Origin: a virus
Lineage: Duplodnaviria > Heunggongvirae > Uroviricota > Caudoviricetes
IMG/VR virus record: IMGVR_UViG_3300038345_000251
Span: 375,248-392,823 of that record
Strand: one strand, 5' to 3'
Length of the DNA: 17,576 nucleotides
Below are positions 1 through 17,014 of this stretch, one piece after another (positions within the stretch are counted from its first letter, which is position 1; each line of letters begins with the position of its first letter). The position numbers and the translations under genes are program-made. Below the pieces are notes generated by a model. It saw only the letters and a list, made by a program, of their open reading frames with translations. It made no database searches and had not been told where the DNA came from.

Positions 1-3000
1 TACTTATAGTTAACCATGATGGTTTATCTGATGATTTATATCCAACGTTTGTATATCCAGTAACTGAGTAACTTTCAGAGTTAGATACATATGTTCCACC
101 AGAATCCAATGAAGTTGGCGTAATAGTACTACTATTATTATAGTCCCATAAAAAGTTATTTGATGGTGTACTTGCAGTAAGTTTTAAATTCACATGGTCA
201 GAACCTGTTTGTGCACCATTAAAATATATATCAAAATCTTCAGCAGTTGAATGATTTGACCAAGATGCTGTTATTGTAGCACTACCTGTTCCAGCTGTTT
301 GTGATAAGTTTAACCAACTTGGTTTAGTAGAAGAATCTACTGTCCAACTTTGGTTTGCTGAAATATCAATTGTATTACTACCTGTACCTGTACTTGTTGT
401 ATAACTATAATTACTTCCATTCCAATATGCAGTAATATAATAACTTGGTGCAGAAGCCTCTTGATTAATTGTAATATAATCATTACCTTGAACTGAACCA
501 TTGAAATAAATATCAGCACTTCTTGCATCACCATCATTTGCACTCCATGATACTGTGATATTACTTGTAGATGAAGTACCAGCTGTTGGACTTACAGTTA
601 TCCAACTTGGTTTACTAGAAGTATTTAATGACCATCCTTGGTTTTCTGTAACAACACGAACAGTTGTTATGTTACCTGCATCTGCACCTGCACTATATTC
701 CCATCCTGTACCTGTTGAACCTGTATAAGTATGAATACTATAACTTACAGGTGGTACATACGCTGACTGTGTAATTGAAATATAACAAGTTTGTCCATGT
801 TCACCTGTAAATGTAAGTGTTGCTGTTCTTTGACTTCCAGCATTAGAACCAACTGTTACTGTTATATTTACATTATTAGTTCCAGCAGTTTGACTTAATG
901 TTGCCCAAGATTGGCTACTTGAACCTGTCCATGCCTGATTTGCTTGTACCCTAACAGTAAATGAACTACCGCCAGAATCTACAGTAGCAGCAGTTGCCGT
1001 ACCTGAAGTACCTGTATAAGCTGTAATTGTATAAGTAATACCTGTTGCTGCTTGTTGTAAATTTAAAGTCGCAACTGTTGTTGAACCTGTTTTAACTAAA
1101 AATTCACCTGTTCTTGCTGTAGTAGTAGTATTTTGTTGTGTTGTTGCACTAAACGTACCATTACCTGATGTATTAGTAATACCTTTTTGTGTAATCCAAT
1201 TATATGATGCAGCAGATGTTAATGTCAAGCCTGTCATATTGGTTGTATATGTGGTAGAATCGGTTGTTGTTGCAGCAGCAATTGATTTAGTGATAGCGGT
1301 TGAACTATTACTCCATAAGAAATATGCTTTTGCTTTTTGTGTAATTGTAATTGTTGCAATTACATTATCGCCAGACTTTATTTGTACAGTACCTGTTCTA
1401 TCAGTTGTATCAGGATTAGCAGCAAATCTACCAACAAAATTAGTACCGTTTAATGTTCCACCTGTAATCCAAGTATCAGTTGTTGCCGTTGTCAAAGTAC
1501 TTGAATAATTTGTAGTATAAGGAATATTACCTGTTGTTGTTGCAGCAGATGTAACTGTTACAGCAGTTGTTGTTGCGCTATTACTACCATCACCCCAATA
1601 GAAGTAATTAGACGTAGGTGCTGGTCCTTGAACAATTGTTATTGTACCAAGTACTTCACCTGTACCCATTCTTGTAATAGTAACAACGTTTCTTCTTTCA
1701 ACATAAGTTGTATTTTCTTTTAATTGGAAAGGTGTTCTATTAGAACTTAAACTAGGTAAATAGTTAAACATTGATATATTATCATTGCTTATAATTATTT
1801 CACCTAAAGGAATATTAGTATCGTACCATCCACCATTTTGAGTTGTTACTGTATTATAAGCAATCGTATCAAGTGTAATAGCAGTTGTTGTATGTGCCTC
1901 TGATTCTGCTTGGGTTTTACCAAGGAAGAAATAATCAGCAATAACTATTTCACCAGATGCTTGGTTAAATGTTATTTTAGCAATGTTGGTTGTACCTGAT
2001 TTAACATAAATATCACCACTTCTTGCAGGTGAATTTGCAGGGTTTTCTTTTACCCTAACACTAATTGTACCAGCAGTTGTTGTAGTCGCAAAACTTACAC
2101 TTTGATACATTGAAGGTGATTCAAAAGTTAATGTTCCAATTTCTGCTGATGTATAATTTGTTTTATAATAAACTGTATATGAACCAGCAGCACTACTTAC
2201 TGTACTTGCATATGTACAGGCTGTTGTCGTTGCTTGTGCTGCTGTATTACCAACATAAAAATATGATGCAGGTTTACCTGCTTGAATAACTTTAATTGTA
2301 CCAACAGTTGTACCATTATTTTGAATATTAAATGTATAATTTCTTTCTGTGGTATATATATTTTGTTGTGTACTTGCAGTAAAGTTACCACTACCCATAC
2401 CTGTGTTAGACAATCCTCTCTCTGTTACCCACGAAGTAGAACCGTTTACACTAATTGAAGTATAACTGTTAGTATATCCTTCACTTATTGTTGTTTCATC
2501 CCAATCAATGTTGATAACTAATGAACTTAAATCACCACCTGTTGCATCATCCCAATTAAATGTACGTTCCATACCTGCTTGTGTAAATGTTGCACCAGAT
2601 GAATATGTCATATTAGTATATTCAATAGTTACATTACCTGTTCTTTCAGTATAACTACTATTATTACTTGCACTAACAGTAATAGTTGTTGGACCAGTAC
2701 CTGTTAAAGTACTGAATGTAAGCCAACTATTTGTATTTGTTATCTTCCAAGGATTTCCTGCTGCTGTATGTACTTGAATTTGTTTACTTTCACCTGTAGC
2801 AACAAACGATGTGTTATCAAGTGTAATAAGACCAAATTGAATACAATTGTCAGTTAATTTATATGAAACATTTTCACATGTATTAGCATTACTACTAGGT
2901 GTACTTGCTGAGAACATATATTCAATATTAGAATCATTTCTTAAAGTACCAATAGTGTTAAATGTTAAGTTTGTTATTTTATTCTGTGTATATGCTGAAT

Positions 3001-3480: not shown

Positions 3481-5967
3481 TTACGTAGCATCCTCTACTG
3501 TCCAATTTGTAGGAATACCTGACGAGCCTGTTGTCCATCCTGTCATTGATGGATTCTTGACAAATGTACCAGAACTTGCAACTCCACTTACCCAATATTG
3601 TGTACAATTAGATGCGCTTATATCAGTTGCCAAACAATTAATATAATTTAAACTACTACAACGAGAGAACATATAATAATAACACTGAGTTGCTAATGTA
3701 GTAGCTGGTAATGCAGGTGCTGTAGTAAGACTTGTACAACCTACGAACATAAATTTATAACAATAATTTGCTAATGCAGTTGCTTGTAATGCAGGTGCTG
3801 TAGTAAGACTTGTACAACCATAGAACATTTCTTCATAACAATCTTCTTTTAATGTAGTTGATGGTAATGCAGGTGCTGTAGTAAGTCTTGTACAACCTCT
3901 GAACATACTTATATAACAATAAGGTGCTAATGTAGTAGCTGGTAATGCAGGTGCTGTTGTAAGACTTGTACAACCATAGAACATTTCTTGATAACAATAA
4001 TTTGCTAATGTAGTAGCTGGTAATTCAGGTGCAGTTGTTAAAATAGTACAACCTCTAAACATAGTACTATAACAATTAATTGCTAATGTAGTAGCTGGTA
4101 ATGCAGGTGCTGTAGTAAGACTTGTACAATCTCTGAACATTGCTCTATAACAATAAGGTGCTAATGTAGTAGCTGGTAATGCAGGTGCTGTTGTAAGACT
4201 TGTACAACCTTCGAACATATATTGATAACAATGTTGTGTTAATGTAGTAGCATGTAATTCAGGTGCTGTTGTTAAACTATTACAACCACTAAACATAGAA
4301 CTATAACAAGCATATGCTAATGTAGTAGCAGGTAACAAATTACTTGGTACAGTTGTTAAACCTGTACAGCCTTGGAACATACCAACATAACAAGCACCTG
4401 CTAAACTTGTTGCTGGTAACATATTATTAGGTATTGTAGTAAGACTTGTACAACGTGCAAACATATAAGTATATGCGCTTGTTGGTAATTTTCCAAGAGG
4501 TAAAACTTGTATATTTGTAAGACTTGTACAACTATCAAACATATTACTATAACAAGCAGTTGCTGCTGACAATTTACTTGACGGAAGTATAGATGGTCCA
4601 TTAACAAGACTTGTACAACCACTAAACATAGCAGAACAACAATATGCGCCCATTGTAGTTGCACTTGCACCAATACTTGTTGGTCCATTAACAAGACTTG
4701 TACAACCAAGAAACATTCTATTACATGCACTTTGGCCAATCGTAGTTGCATTTGCACCAATACTTGTTGGTCCATTAATAAGCCCAGTACAACCACTAAA
4801 CATTTCTTTACAAGACATTCTCGCTAAACTTGTTGCAGGTAATTCAGGTGCTGTTGTTAATGATATACAACCAGCAAACATACACTCATAACCTTCAAGA
4901 GATATTTCTGTTGCAGGTAATTCAGGTGCTGTTGTTAACGATGTACATCTTCTAAACATATAAGCACATGAATATACTTCTATTACTGTTGCTGGAATTA
5001 TAGATGGTGCTTTAGTAAGACTTGTACATCCTTGGAACATACTTGTATAAGAACCATGTCTTAAAGTAGTTGCTGGTAAAGACAATTTGCTTGCGTCTGT
5101 TAAACCTGTACAATTTGCAAATAAAGCAGAAAAATTATATCTATAAGTTAAATAGTTTAATGTAGTAAAATTAGTGCTACTAATTAAACTCATTATATTT
5201 CCTTTAACGTTAAATACTGCTGTTGTACCACTAAATGTACTCATTTTGTTATCAGGCCAAGGGTCAACACTAGTACCGTATGTACTATTATTACCTCTAA
5301 ATTGGATAATATCACCTGCCACTACTTCAATAGTTGGTGCTGAATCACCTGTACTACTTGTAATAGCACTCCACGTTTGCCCGCTATCTTTACTATATTC
5401 AATTGTTCTGTGATGATTATTATAATTACCATCTTCTATGTCACCGCCAATTTTACCAGCAGCTGATTTCCAATATATTGTACCACTAGATAAGATTTCG
5501 AATGTAAGTGGATATGTTTTGGGGTCTGGTACATGTTCCTGTGTAATACCATACTTAGTAGTAACGTATCTCGTATTTGGCATTGTATACCTAACAGTAA
5601 AAAATCCACTTCTATCTTCTTCAGTATTATCATATTCATCTGCCTCTACTGTTAATATAGTTGCACCTGTTCCCCTGTTTGGTGAAACATTAAGCCAACC
5701 TGATTTCTCAGTAATTGCCCACGTGTTTGTTGCTCTTGTAGTTAATGATGTAGTTTCACTACCACCTTCATAACTAAATGGTTCAATATCGTCAATTTCG
5801 ATTACACCATAATCAATTTCATCAGGTCTATCAATTGGACCTGGGTTATAATGCACATGATATTCATTTTCACAAACAGATACATTAGGTTTATATACTT
5901 TACCTTGTTCTCCGTCTATATAAGTCTGATATTCAGAATCTTGTTTAAATCTTTTTGTCCAAAGCAT
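3481..5967 (-). CDS. 828-aa adhesin-like protein: shared N-terminal module, BACON domain, beta-rich linker domain, about 19 BspA/DUF285-like LRR repeats, C-terminal cap
   Basis: BACON-like WAITEKSGWLNVSPNRGTGATILTVEADEYDNTEEDRSGFFTV; repeats APxLPATTLAxxCYxxMFxGCTSLTT; cap YINCLATDISA...GTFVKN...GIPTNWTV. Confidence 0.9.
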   Translation of the reverse strand: MLWTKRFKQDSEYQTYIDGEQGKVYKPNVSVCENEYHVHYNPGPIDRPDEIDYGVIEIDDIEPFSYEGGSETTSLTTRATNTWAITEKSGWLNVSPNRGTGATILTVEADEYDNTEEDRSGFFTVRYTMPNTRYVTTKYGITQEHVPDPKTYPLTFEILSSGTIYWKSAAGKIGGDIEDGNYNNHHRTIEYSKDSGQTWSAITSSTGDSAPTIEVVAGDIIQFRGNNSTYGTSVDPWPDNKMSTFSGTTAVFNVKGNIMSLISSTNFTTLNYLTYRYNFSALFANCTGLTDASKLSLPATTLRHGSYTSMFQGCTSLTKAPSIIPATVIEVYSCAYMFRRCTSLTTAPELPATEISLEGYECMFAGCISLTTAPELPATSLARMSCKEMFSGCTGLINGPTSIGANATTIGQSACNRMFLGCTSLVNGPTSIGASATTMGAYCCSAMFSGCTSLVNGPSILPSSKLSAATACYSNMFDSCTSLTNIQVLPLGKLPTSAYTYMFARCTSLTTIPNNMLPATSLAGACYVGMFQGCTGLTTVPSNLLPATTLAYACYSSMFSGCNSLTTAPELHATTLTQHCYQYMFEGCTSLTTAPALPATTLAPYCYRAMFRDCTSLTTAPALPATTLAINCYSTMFRGCTILTTAPELPATTLANYCYQEMFYGCTSLTTAPALPATTLAPYCYISMFRGCTRLTTAPALPSTTLKEDCYEEMFYGCTSLTTAPALQATALANYCYKFMFVGCTSLTTAPALPATTLATQCYYYMFSRCSSLNYINCLATDISASNCTQYWVSGVASSGTFVKNPSMTGWTTGSSGIPTNWTVEDAT
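3645..5130 (-). repeat. Coding tandem repeat array, 78-bp (26-aa) period in the distal block, 27-29 aa units proximally
   Basis: Repeat anchors at 3694, 3850 and 3928 are multiples of 78 apart; 3691-3739 and 4081-4129 are 49 bp identical (5 x 78 apart); 19 (M/L)FxxC motifs counted. Confidence 0.92.
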
Positions 5968-6011: not shown

Positions 6012-7661
6012 TTACGCTTCCATTACAAATCTAACATTCCATCCTTTTGCTGTTCCATCTGCTAATAAATGATACAATGGGTCAGAACTTGTTGGAATAT
6101 AATAACCATCACCACTAGATTGATAATATGTTAAAATGCCATTACCGTTAAATACAACTGTATGTGGATTTGCTGTACAATCTGCTGCGTTAGCAATAAC
6201 ATATTCAATAGAAGTTGCATTCATTTTTGGAATATACGTCTTTGTTGTTTTATTACTAAAGTTCCAGTCGTTATTATTTAAGTTAATAATTCTAACATCT
6301 GTTAATTCAGGGCATTCAAACATTATTCCACCTAATGCTTCTTGGTTATATCCTTCAGCTGTACATCCACTTAAACTAATACAATTCATATTAATTCTTG
6401 GACCAAGGAATGTCAAACTATCCATACCCCTAAATATATTTGAACAGTTTGATGTACCTCTTGTTCCATCGAATCTTGGATAAAGTGTATTATAAACAGA
6501 ATCTCTTCCCCATGCTGTAACATAAGGAATAGAAGTCAAACTACCACACTCTTGGAATACATTATGACATGTTCTAATAGCATCCCATCTAAATGAACCG
6601 TTAATATTAAGTGTTTGTAATCTGTAGCAAAATTCAAACATACCAACAACTTCATGACAACTGAATATACCACAGTTTAATGTTAATGCAGTTGTTTGTT
6701 GCATTTCACTAAACATAACTTGTGCAATACTACTATAGTCACCATTAATTGTAACAGTTACGTTTTTAGGCGTATTTCTGAAACCACTTTCACTATAATA
6801 TTCTTCTTGTGCTCCTTTATATCTTGGTGAGAAAATACCTTCACCTTGATATGTACCCCAAGGATAGTCAGGTGCTGCCCAACTTGCACCATTAAATGTA
6901 ATACTGAAATTATCTATACCATTAAGTGCCCAGAATATTGCAGCACCTGGTTTTGTTGGAACAGTTTTATTGTTATACCAACTATATAAATCATTATCAG
7001 TCCAACCTTCAGGTTTCTTATGATTCCAAAGAATAATGTTGTTTCTATAAACTGTAGGGTCTGAAGGGTCTGCTTCAATTTTCTTTTGATTTAATGAAAC
7101 TTCTTGCCAATCGCTTACAAGTAAAGCATTATAAGGACAAGCAGATAATATTTCAATTGTGTTTATACCGCCATTATATGACATTGTAGCATAACCTGCA
7201 TCAATTAAACCTTTAACAGTAATTTCATAGTTAGCATATAATACAACATCTTCATCTGTTACCATACTATCACCAGGTTCAATAATAAATCCTGATTGTT
7301 CTACTTCACTTCTTGTTGGGATTTCAACTGTTGACCAACCTATAAATTCGTATTCTGTTACAGGTGTTGCAGGTGCTGATTTTGCAGTAAATGTAACATC
7401 ACTTGACCTACCTGTTACTGTAACAGTTTCATCTGTAGTTTCAGCACTACTTGTTTTATATCTGTATGTAATTGTATAAGAATATGTTGTTCCAGTTTCA
7501 CCACTAGTATCTGAACAATGGTCAACTGTTCCATCATCGTTATAATGAACTTCATATTCTGCTTCGCAAACTGAAACGTTAGGCATACATACTTTACCTT
7601 CGCCTCCATTTATAAAGTTTTGATACTCTATATGATTAAGAAATGCTTTTGTATGTGACAT
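6012..7661 (-). CDS. 549-aa adhesin-like protein: shared N-terminal module, Listeria-Bacteroides-repeat-like domain, unknown middle domain, degenerate LRRs
   Basis: The track start at 7670 is TTG; ATG 7661 (MSHTKAF) aligns with the paralog starts. YEFIGWST...IEPGD...EDVVLYANY resembles the InlB-B/Flg_new repeat; LRR-like MFEFCYRLQTL, VFQECGSLTSIP, IFRGMDSLTFL. Confidence 0.82.
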   Translation of the reverse strand: MSHTKAFLNHIEYQNFINGGEGKVCMPNVSVCEAEYEVHYNDDGTVDHCSDTSGETGTTYSYTITYRYKTSSAETTDETVTVTGRSSDVTFTAKSAPATPVTEYEFIGWSTVEIPTRSEVEQSGFIIEPGDSMVTDEDVVLYANYEITVKGLIDAGYATMSYNGGINTIEILSACPYNALLVSDWQEVSLNQKKIEADPSDPTVYRNNIILWNHKKPEGWTDNDLYSWYNNKTVPTKPGAAIFWALNGIDNFSITFNGASWAAPDYPWGTYQGEGIFSPRYKGAQEEYYSESGFRNTPKNVTVTINGDYSSIAQVMFSEMQQTTALTLNCGIFSCHEVVGMFEFCYRLQTLNINGSFRWDAIRTCHNVFQECGSLTSIPYVTAWGRDSVYNTLYPRFDGTRGTSNCSNIFRGMDSLTFLGPRINMNCISLSGCTAEGYNQEALGGIMFECPELTDVRIINLNNNDWNFSNKTTKTYIPKMNATSIEYVIANAADCTANPHTVVFNGNGILTYYQSSGDGYYIPTSSDPLYHLLADGTAKGWNVRFVMEA

Positions 7662-10498: not shown

Positions 10499-11746
10499 TA
10501 CAAAAATAATTGACTTTTTGTAAATATAATATTATTCATTGTAAATGAAAGTGATTTACAAAACATATAAGTACAGAATGTACCCAAATAAGGAGCAAGA
10601 ACAAATACTTGCAAGGTATTTTGGGTCAGTCAGGTTTATATATAATTACTTTCTTGCTCAAAGAAAACAACAATATTCTGAAAATGGTACAAGTGATAAC
10701 TACTATCAACAAGCAAAAACACTTACCAATTTAAAAAAACAAGAAGAATACTCATGGTTAAAGGAAATTAACTCACAAACATTACAATTTACTTTAAGAA
10801 ACTTAGAAACTGCATATACTAATTTCTTTAATGGTAAAGCAAGGTTTCCAAGATTCAAAGCAAAGAAAAATGGTTGTAGTTTCCATATACCACAATTTTG
10901 TTCCATTGAAAATGGCATGGTTTATATACCAAAACTCAAAAATGGTATAAAAATAGTGGAACACAGACCATTCAAAGGTGGTGATGTTAGAAACATGACA
11001 ATCTCTGTCACACCAAGTGGGAAATATTATGTTTCCATACTTACACAAGTTGCATATGAGCCTTTACAGAAAACCAATGTAATGGTTGGTATAGACTTGG
11101 GTTTGAAAGACTTGGTGATTACAAGTGATGGTAAGAAATATTCAAGTAACAAATTCATCAAACATTACACCAAGGAACTTGCAAAAGCACAAAAACACTT
11201 GTCAAGGAAACAGAAAGGTAGTAATTCTTGGAACAGACAAAGACTTAAAGTTGCAAAAATACAGGAGAAAATACATAACTGTAGGTTTGATAAATTACAC
11301 AAGATTAGTACTGATTTGATTAGAAATTATGATGTGATTTGTTGTGAAGATTTGAATGTTAAGGGAATGCAAAAAAATCATAAACTTGCACAATCAATTT
11401 CAGATGCAAGTTGGGGTACATTTCTTACAATGCTTACATATAAAGCAGAAATGAATGATAAACAAGTAGTAAAGATAGGTAGATACTACCCATCTTCAAA
11501 AACTTGTCATTGTTGTGGTTATGTAAAAGAGGATTTAACACTTAGGGATAGAGAATGGATTTGTCCTGTTTGTGGTGAAGTTCTTGACAGAGATACAAAT
11601 GCAGCAATGAATATTCTTTCAGAAGGGTTAAAAAATATATCATCAGGAACTGGTGATTACACTGATGGAGTGGATATAAGACATTTTCAAAGGCAATCTA
11701 CTATGAAGTCAGAAGCCAACAAATCTTTAGTTTGTTGGTAGTTCAC
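10499..11746 (+). mobile_element. Solo-TnpB (IS200/IS605-superfamily, IS1341-like) element; left boundary uncertain
   Basis: tnpB with no tnpA; right-end hairpin ccaacaaa/tttgttgg (11716-11738) ending AGTTCAC at 11746; upstream hairpin tacaaaaa/tttttgta (10499-10522). Confidence 0.65.
10545..11741 (+). CDS. tnpB: RNA-guided endonuclease TnpB (IS605 OrfB family), 398 aa
   Basis: N-terminal YKYRMYPNKEQ...FGSVRFIYNYFL HTH; RuvC-I GIDLG, RuvC-II CEDL, Zn ribbon CHCCG...CPVCG, RuvC-III DRDTNAAMNI; D/E/D triad intact. Confidence 0.95.
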   Translation: MKVIYKTYKYRMYPNKEQEQILARYFGSVRFIYNYFLAQRKQQYSENGTSDNYYQQAKTLTNLKKQEEYSWLKEINSQTLQFTLRNLETAYTNFFNGKARFPRFKAKKNGCSFHIPQFCSIENGMVYIPKLKNGIKIVEHRPFKGGDVRNMTISVTPSGKYYVSILTQVAYEPLQKTNVMVGIDLGLKDLVITSDGKKYSSNKFIKHYTKELAKAQKHLSRKQKGSNSWNRQRLKVAKIQEKIHNCRFDKLHKISTDLIRNYDVICCEDLNVKGMQKNHKLAQSISDASWGTFLTMLTYKAEMNDKQVVKIGRYYPSSKTCHCCGYVKEDLTLRDREWICPVCGEVLDRDTNAAMNILSEGLKNISSGTGDYTDGVDIRHFQRQSTMKSEANKSLVCW

Positions 11747-15506: not shown

Positions 15507-15905
15507 ATGACAAAAGAAGAAAAACAATTATTGCTTAAAGACCTATGTGCAAGGTTGTATTATGGGGTTTATGTTGATGCATATTCGTGGCAAAAAGATA
15601 CTCCCAAATTGCTCCTTGAATGTGTACCAGAATATATAGGAGAAGAAATTGTGGTTAACAGATTGGCTGGAAGACATTCGATAAAGGAAATCAAACCATA
15701 TCTTCGTCCAATGTCTTCTATGACGGAGGAAGAGAGGGAAGAATACTGTAATTTACAAGATAGATTTCTTTGTAGTCCCCAATATCCAGTTACTGATGCT
15801 TATGAAATCTTTGATTGGCTCAATTCCCATCATTTTGACTATCGTGGACTTATACCTATGGGTTTGGCTTTGGAAGCACCAGAAGATATGTATAAGGAGG
15901 GATAA
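15507..15905 (+). CDS. Conserved Bacteroidota phage/prophage hypothetical protein (132 aa)
   Basis: LLLKDLCARL, IKPYLRPMSSMTEEE and DWLNSHHFDYRGLI...LALEAPE motifs recognised. Confidence 0.82.
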   Translation: MTKEEKQLLLKDLCARLYYGVYVDAYSWQKDTPKLLLECVPEYIGEEIVVNRLAGRHSIKEIKPYLRPMSSMTEEEREEYCNLQDRFLCSPQYPVTDAYEIFDWLNSHHFDYRGLIPMGLALEAPEDMYKEG

Positions 15906-15908
15906 GAT

Positions 15909-16025
15909 ATGCCGATAGCAAAATGTGGGGTACAGTTTTCGTGGGACACACCAATGTGGTGTAAAACCGATAAAAAAGATTGTGATAAATGCCCATTAAA
16001 CAACAAATATAATAAAGATAATTAA
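15909..16025 (+). CDS. Tiny Cys-rich protein (38 aa); not in ORF track
   Basis: MPIAKCGVQFSWDTPMWCKTDKKDCDKCPLNNKYNKDN*; fills the gap exactly with 3-bp spacing on each side. Confidence 0.55.
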   Translation: MPIAKCGVQFSWDTPMWCKTDKKDCDKCPLNNKYNKDN

Positions 16026-16028
16026 GTT

Positions 16029-16214
16029 ATGACAGAAGTTTCTGTAAATATAAAACATAAGGATGGACTTTTGGTAAAAGATATGTGTGACTATGCTCTT
16101 GCCTACATGGATGAACATAATATCAAACGTAGAGGTGTAGAAAGAGTTACAAAAGAGATATTAGATAAAGTGAATTGGATGCTTGACAACCCACTAAAAG
16201 ACGGAAGATACTAA
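16029..16214 (+). CDS. Hypothetical protein (61 aa)
   Basis: Operon-packed ORF. Confidence 0.65.
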   Translation: MTEVSVNIKHKDGLLVKDMCDYALAYMDEHNIKRRGVERVTKEILDKVNWMLDNPLKDGRY

Positions 16215-16232
16215 TTAAAATATTCTAAAACT

Positions 16233-16595
16233 ATGAACAAATTAGAATTGAGCACAGTTGTTACGTTACCTGCACCTGCACTATATTCCCATCCTGTACC
16301 TGAAGATTACGTTTCCTTTGAAACAGCAAAAATAGCACAAGAAGTTTCCGTTCAATATAATGTTGATGAAAAAGGAATGCCTACGGTTAAACTGTCATAT
16401 CAAGATAAAACAAAGACTTTCCATTCAGAATTCAGTATAAACCGTTTTTTGGGAGTATATCATGGATTACTGCACGAACAGGTTAAGCCAGAAAATTATA
16501 TTATTGCAGGAATGCATGAAGATTGGGATTATGGTATTAAAATGACTGCTGAAGAGTGGTGTAAGTGTGTTAGGGCTATTTATAAGGTTTTTTGA
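16233..16595 (+). CDS. Hypothetical protein (120 aa) with mosaic N-terminus containing an antisense BACON-gene fragment
   Basis: Residues TVVTLPAPALYSHPVP are encoded by the 660-714 copy, followed by EDYVSFETAK. Confidence 0.7.
   Translation: MNKLELSTVVTLPAPALYSHPVPEDYVSFETAKIAQEVSVQYNVDEKGMPTVKLSYQDKTKTFHSEFSINRFLGVYHGLLHEQVKPENYIIAGMHEDWDYGIKMTAEEWCKCVRAIYKVF
16254..16302 (+). repeat. Recipient copy of the BACON-gene fragment (660-714)
   Basis: acagttgttacgttacctgcacctgcactatattcccatcctgtacctg, 49 bp. Confidence 0.95.
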
Positions 16596-16609: not shown

Positions 16610-17014
16610 ATGATTACTGAAGATTATGTTTCATTTGATGTTGCTAAACTCCTGAAAGAGAAGGGGTTTGATGCAGAATGTGCTTATCTTTATATTGATG
16701 GGAAACTTGTAAAAGCACAGGGATATGCATGTAATTGGAATGACGGGGAAACACTTTTTGCCGATTACAAGAACGAATGTTCCGCCCCAACCCTTCAAAT
16801 GGCAATGAAGTGGCTGAGGAAGAAACAAAACCAGAACGTCACTGTGAAAGCCTACAACAACGTTGCAAGGCTGAAAACGATATATTACGCAGAAGTGCAG
16901 AATCTTTCAGAGCCAACCGAAAAGGGTTTCTGCGTAAACGGATGTACCTTCAAGGATACTTATGAAGAAGCCTGTGAATCGGCAATAAGATATATACTTG
17001 AAAATTTGATTTAA
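16610..17014 (+). CDS. Conserved Bacteroidota phage hypothetical protein (EDYVSF..AKLLKEKGF family)
   Basis: EDYVSFDVAKLLKEKGF, SAPTLQMAMKWLR and YEEACESAI motifs; the track start 16592 is TTG and ATG 16610 is preferred. Confidence 0.82.
   Translation: MITEDYVSFDVAKLLKEKGFDAECAYLYIDGKLVKAQGYACNWNDGETLFADYKNECSAPTLQMAMKWLRKKQNQNVTVKAYNNVARLKTIYYAEVQNLSEPTEKGFCVNGCTFKDTYEEACESAIRYILENLI

Follow-up and report, generated by a model that had tools for sequence, protein, structure and literature searches.

The small gene P0001 in a 393-kb phage genome carries, close to its start codon, a short piece of DNA that recurs, on the same DNA strand and at a distance of 15.6 kb, within the phage's own BACON-repeat gene, and we consider this insert to be probably a neutral or nearly neutral scar left by a templated insertion or by illegitimate recombination. 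The window (the whole stretch of DNA analyzed here, 17,576 nucleotides) is the last 17.6 kb (positions 375248 to 392823) of a 392,823-bp virus record (G+C content, 29.6%). Its left part is occupied by three large minus-strand genes with BACON and BspA-type leucine-rich repeats, and a long array of small plus-strand genes, among them P0001, follows from about 8 kb. Positions below refer to the window unless they are given as genome positions, and the features discussed are collected in Table 1.

Table 1. Coordinates of the donor, the recipient, and the parts of the recipient's 5' region (window positions)
Feature	Positions	Strand	Basis
BACON-repeat donor gene, 5' 1,125 codons	2..3376	-	ORF list
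Donor segment, 55 bp, GTGWEYSAGADAGNITTV, residues ~889-906, start of one BACON module	660..714	-	DNA and translation
Block shared with contig L003, young by its divergence	15873..16331	+	Position-by-position comparison
Orphan gene P0029, 61 aa, just upstream of P0001	16029..16214	+	
Recipient gene P0001, 120 aa	16233..16595	+	ORF, family search and alignment
Seven codons MNKLELS, including the present start codon	16233..16253	+	Also in L003
Putative captured copy, 48 bp plus one ambiguous G; TVVTLPAPALYSHPVP, residues 8-23 of P0001	16254..16302	+	
Putative second captured piece, EDYVSFETAK	16302..16331	+	First codons of the MITEDYVSF...AKLLKEKGF family (phrog_12005)
Ancestral ATG start of the family core; ATA in the window	16332..16334	+	Alignments
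Next gene, member of the MITEDYVSF family	16610..17014	+	phrog_12005, E 2.1e-15

The two copies form a direct DNA repeat, with positions 660 to 714 (55 bp) and 16254 to 16302 (49 bp) both read on the plus strand. The exact core of the repeat comprises 33 bp (682 to 714, identical to 16270 to 16302); the rest consists of 16 bases with a single T/C difference at 670/16264, and the only gap, of 6 bp, is located inside a CTGCA(T/C)CTGCACCTGCA run. In BLAST against the whole 393-kb genome, the gapped match had an E value of 3.5e-14, and in a self-BLAST of the genome the 33-mer alone had one of 3e-8, which shows that the repeat is not a product of chance, and the genome contains exactly two copies of it. 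The DNA agrees in position and in kind with what the earlier note had described (33 identical bp, one T/C change, and a 6-bp indel), and the two peptides that it had read from the opposite strands, GWEYSAGADAGNITTV and TVVTLPAPALYSHPVP, are both right on translation. In relatives without the piece, the G that closes the repeat (16302) doubles as the opening base of a GAA codon, which leaves 48 bp (16 codons) as the unambiguous insert.

The full BACON gene extends past the left end of the window and occupies genome positions 373245 to 378623 (1,792 aa). Its product matches Pfam BACON in five stretches (E = 2.2e-32), as well as viral BACON_2, and is a probable surface or adhesin protein. The donor piece aligns with the corresponding opening strands of the adjacent BACON modules; since it fits its neighbors in this way, it is a native part of the BACON gene, the ORF of which (1,792 aa) is intact. 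In the family of the small gene, by comparison, the piece is an extra found in 2 of 27 members, and the earlier proposal that the BACON gene was the donor is borne out by both observations. No orthologue of the BACON protein was detected by a related-locus search of viral and metagenome contigs, by a fragment search of 5.8 billion proteins, or in a 1.84-billion representative library, where the top nonself match was 35% identical, and a 90% cluster look-up returned the protein as a singleton. These searches gave no second allele for comparison with the earlier note's third option, a capture from a related phage that would explain the indel.

The recipient gene is unrelated to the BACON gene, as had been stated. 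A search among 5.8 billion proteins returned 26 relatives of P0001 (giving a family of 27 with P0001 itself), and the family alignment divides P0001 into a conserved 87-aa core (residues 34 to 120) that opens at residue 34 with M-(A/T)-Q-E-V and a chimeric 33-aa N-terminal tail. The majority of the family members begin with ATG at the start of the core (the equivalent of position 16332); in relatives that also carry an N-terminal extension, this position is CTG or CCG. The BACON piece lies upstream of this ancestral start codon, and residues derived from it are present in only two family members, P0001 and P0003. In an AlphaFold model built from the family alignment, the core is folded and residues 1 to 33 have pLDDT values of <50, which are due in part to the thin alignment over the tail; the tail is predicted to be disordered. 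A weak match of P0001 to Pfam DUF4121 fell below the cutoff, PHROG gave no match, and no informative fold match was obtained; none of these searches pointed to a function of the protein. P0001 likewise had no match in the viral contig collection, and relatives in GenBank phages were found by neither blastn nor tblastn. The earlier note had stressed that the piece is read in frame in the small gene. This is true but unremarkable, as all three plus-strand frames are open across it; moreover, of all 48-nt antisense windows taken from the BACON gene, 36% contain no stop codon when read in a given frame.

The second carrier of the piece, P0003, is encoded on L003, a 1,790-bp contig of sequencing run SRR16606034. 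This contig comes from a different sample and a different assembler and aligns with the window at 92.7% identity across 876 bp. L003 carries both junctions of the insert, left and right, in the same form as the window. Its insert matches the BACON copy of the window without a mismatch, apart from the 6-bp gap; the window's own insert has since changed an ATG to ACG. An assembly chimera, in which reads from the BACON gene were wrongly threaded into the small gene, had been kept as an option in the earlier note, and a 33-bp repeat is indeed within the size range of assembler k-mers. However, two false joins within 49 bases would be needed, at outer ends that have no sequence in common, the copy has variants of its own (one base change and the 6-bp deletion), and the independent contig has the same two junctions, so that this option is effectively excluded and, in our estimate, barely conceivable. 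Exact scans gave no further copies (0 matches for the 33-mer in the viral contigs and 0 for a 23-mer in the metagenome contigs).

Compared position by position, a block of about 460 bp (15873 to 16331) differs from L003 by four substitutions and one 12-bp indel (∼1%), and the flanks of this block differ by 6 to 20%. The block contains a 38-aa Cys-rich ORF, the orphan gene P0029, and the chimeric 5' end of P0001 with the insert, and it ends on the right at the ancestral start codon. A divergence of ∼1% indicates that the insert is young. Judged from these differences, the comparison suggests that the block is a cassette that was recently exchanged by recombination between strains; that the block is nearly unchanged in two strains which are 6 to 20% apart around it could mean that it was either recently exchanged or favored, and this counts against the neutral reading. 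The 38-aa Cys-rich ORF (15910 to 16026, plus strand), located in the gap before P0029, is uncalled in the window and is called as a gene in L003 (positions 200 to 316); it contains four Cys residues with a zinc-ribbon-like spacing and lies within the young shared block.

The tail of P0001 as a whole is stitched together from at least three parts, namely, the MNKLELS codons, the BACON piece, and the opening codons of the neighboring MITEDYVSF gene family. For the MNKLELS stretch, no second copy was found in the genome or in the viral contig collection, an exact scan of the viral contigs with the left-flank 21-mer gave 0 matches, and an allele with this left flank but without the piece was not present among the family members and viral contigs searched. 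On the other side, EDYVSFETAK has matches at the beginning of the next gene, whose ATG lies at 16610, and of genes at genome positions 370852 and near 900, and this stretch is itself borrowed from the MITEDYVSF gene family. Its protein sequence is conserved while its codons have changed synonymously, with serine codons, for example, alternating between TCN and AGT, and this conservation indicates that the tail is translated. The right end of the piece, at GAAGATTA, is precisely where homology with the window sets in for three closer relatives that lack the piece (L004, L011, and L012); these relatives begin with ATG-AT(T/A)-(A/G)C(A/C), followed by GAAGATTAT, and their protein begins with M-I-(T/A)-EDY(V/T)SFETAK. 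Alleles of the gene at 16233 that lack the insert, which the earlier note had suggested looking for, thus exist, and they define its right border only.

Microhomology at the junctions amounts to 0 nt on the left and 1 nt (the G) on the right, and it would be 3 nt (CTG) on the right only if the ancestor had at codon 3 the ACT that is found in the next gene. With microhomology this small, the signature of a template switch is weak. Just upstream, P0029 is known from this genome and L003 only, and its first codons resemble the start of the family core (16 of 20 bases match, counted by eye). A further slip at the same gene start is seen in L004 (positions 6040 to 6075) and at the equivalent site of L012, where a 12-bp tandem duplication at the start of the core, GAAGTTTCCGAA followed by GAAGTTTCCGTT, gives QEVSEEVS. 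The second stitched piece, this duplication, and the chimeric start of P0029 together point to a gene boundary that is prone to illegitimate joins. The paralogues that share the N terminus MITEDYVSF(E/D)(T/V)AKLLKEKGF (phrog_12005) are located at genome positions 820 to 1329, 370852 to 371265, and 391857 to 392261 (window 16610 to 17014), and the L004 homologue of this family is called DUF6794. Since the first of these paralogues is right at the beginning of the contig and the last close to where it ends, the array of small genes probably continues across the contig ends.

The reading that we favor, a copying scar, can be outlined as follows. In a recent ancestor of this lineage, while the 5' end of the small gene was being replicated or a break there was being repaired, 48 to 54 bases would have been copied with the phage's own BACON-repeat gene as the template, through polymerase template switching or illegitimate recombination that required little or no microhomology, and the copy would have been joined ahead of codon 4 of the small gene's earlier start region. 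The gene may have survived this event because the number of codons added was whole (the added length is divisible into codons with or without the 6 bp, i.e., at 54 or 48 bases), because the piece contains no stop codon in any frame, and because it entered a putatively disordered tail before the 87-aa core. The 6-bp indel would most simply be the result of slippage in the CTGCA triplet, and the complementarity of the two mRNAs would be a by-product of the copying. We infer the copying mechanism, the neutrality of the insert, and the timing of the 6-bp indel from the sequences compared here, with neutrality as an assumption.

A variant of this history, that the insert is the remnant of a larger rearrangement in which a longer BACON duplicate arose beside the small gene, e.g., by unequal recombination in a concatemer, and was later trimmed to 48 bases, would fit a region that is a patchwork with several old joins, a left flank without an identifiable source in the genome or the viral contigs, and the minimal microhomology at the junctions. 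We nevertheless regard it as unlikely: no relative has a longer BACON-derived stretch, L003 has exactly the same 49 bases, and the identity of the L003 insert to the donor, save for the 6-bp gap, makes the insert young and leaves little time for stepwise trimming. Where the earlier note had offered break repair or cDNA capture as sources of a templated-insertion scar, the scar itself is supported and the cDNA variant is not, as no reverse transcriptase was found in the phage. A preprint (bioRxiv 10.1101/2022.03.14.484287) reports that group II intron-like reverse transcriptases act in bacterial break repair, and one could imagine that such an enzyme copied RNA of the BACON locus and that the cDNA was ligated into a break. 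Against this, RVT_1 is absent from the phage genome, and the insert has the orientation of the donor DNA and bears no mark of an RNA origin, which leaves cDNA capture very improbable. End joining by Ku was rejected in the same way, since no Ku was found in the phage genome. A diversity-generating retroelement was considered as well and rejected on account of the missing RVT_1 and of a copy with one substitution in 49 bases and many unchanged adenines.

That the insert might instead be functional was the first option in the earlier note, which saw in it a trans-antisense element acting on the BACON gene. The two mRNAs are indeed complementary, as the genes are on opposite strands and the repeat is direct, and the predicted RNA duplex, in which 33 + 16 nt of complementarity are interrupted by one mismatch and a bulge of 6 nt, has an energy of about −83 kcal/mol. 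The mRNA of the small gene would then pair with the BACON mRNA, and cleavage by a double-strand-specific RNase or a block of translation would lower or delay production of the BACON protein. The two genes belong to different gene blocks, the insert has been retained in two strains, and a perfect RNA duplex of 33 bp would probably act in some way if both genes were transcribed together. Several observations argue against such a mechanism, which we rate as improbable. The target lies in the middle of an ORF (codons 889 to 906 of 1,792) and not at a ribosome-binding site, and the piece is part of a translated tail and not of a separate RNA gene. Only the 2 of 27 family members mentioned above carry it, both in one block that is ∼1% diverged, so that the pairing is not conserved across relatives, and the copy in the window already has one mismatch. 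No other pair of this kind was found in the genome, and the window has no match to an Rfam family; around the small gene, the frequency of promoter- and terminator-like sites does not exceed the chance expectation. Since the whole block, and not just the insert, is ∼1% diverged in both carriers, retention of the insert is no evidence of selection on the pairing. Beyond the complementarity itself, the antisense option found no support, and it seems to us hardly likely that the captured piece makes the transcript of the accessory gene a trans-antisense RNA against the BACON-repeat gene. If it did, one chance copy would have created a new regulatory link between two classes of megaphage genes, and the pairing would amount to the observed birth of an antisense regulator.

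The capture that we interpret as a copying scar is an isolated event and not part of a repeated system. When the matches of the genome self-alignment were sorted by gene context and protein relatedness, no other short capture was significant between unrelated genes (the next-best matches of this type had E values of 0.003 or worse), and the remaining short high-identity repeats in the genome proved to be intergenic motifs or to lie between paralogues. Among the intergenic repeats is a motif of 54 to 65 bp with 96 to 98% identity that occurs in gaps between small minus-strand genes (genome positions 16208 to 16272, 18225 to 18278, 19861 to 19913, and 22229 to 22293) and probably acts as a promoter or regulatory element common to the genes of that array. 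Repeats of another type are present in the window at 3574 to 5079 (minus strand), where about 17 tandem units of 78 bp encode the leucine-rich repeats of an 828-aa protein; the units have a near-identical scaffold with short variable slots.

The phage also has two TnpB-like genes, one in the window (10545 to 11741, plus strand) and one at genome positions 50328 to 51524 (minus strand). The genome copy starts with MNKAFKYKLNPT and is flanked by short inverted repeats (50290 to 50315 and 51622 to 51647), and a further 28-bp match is located at 370811 to 370838, just upstream of a MITEDYVSF-family gene. A link between TnpB and the insert was rejected, as the sequence past the right end of the TnpB gene in the window is, by eye, unlike the repeat.

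As a copying scar, the insert offers a clean, datable example of how accessory genes of phages gain new front ends from short pieces of unrelated genes, in this case with one captured piece that is read from the antisense strand and contributes 16 new residues. A further lesson is that a short exact repeat shared by distant phage genes is not necessarily a regulatory or recombination site. The view of how this phage works is not changed by it unless antisense pairing matters. Phage trans-acting antisense RNAs that work by such pairing include c4 of P1 and CI of P4, which are dedicated, processed, and conserved small antisense RNAs directed against ribosome-binding or leader regions. Our case is like them in that short complementary repeats, kilobases apart in one phage genome, allow transcripts to pair; it is unlike them in that the complementary stretch is coding, has its target in the middle of an ORF, belongs to one young lineage, and is known from sequence alone.

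Illegitimate recombination at gene boundaries is known from the work of Hendrix and Hatfull to build the mosaics of phage genomes, the classical joints of which connect whole gene modules. As in these mosaics, the join described here falls right at the beginning of a small accessory gene within a hypervariable array, the neighbors upstream of the gene differ among relatives, and its start was replaced on more than one occasion. It differs from the classical joints in that the joined parts enclose a 48-bp filler, which stems from an unrelated gene of the phage's own genome and is translated in antisense. The other process that we compared is polymerase template switching of the MMBIR/FoSTeS type, for which templated insertions have been described (e.g., PMC8421209). 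The insert resembles such events in being a short copy from the same genome at a novel joint, in having an intact donor, in being a one-off, and in showing a small slippage-type indel; it departs from them in that they are defined mainly from the genomes of eukaryotes and cancers, where each switch usually shows microhomology of a few bases, whereas the insert in P0001 is in a phage and its junctions have 0 to 1 nt, at most 3.
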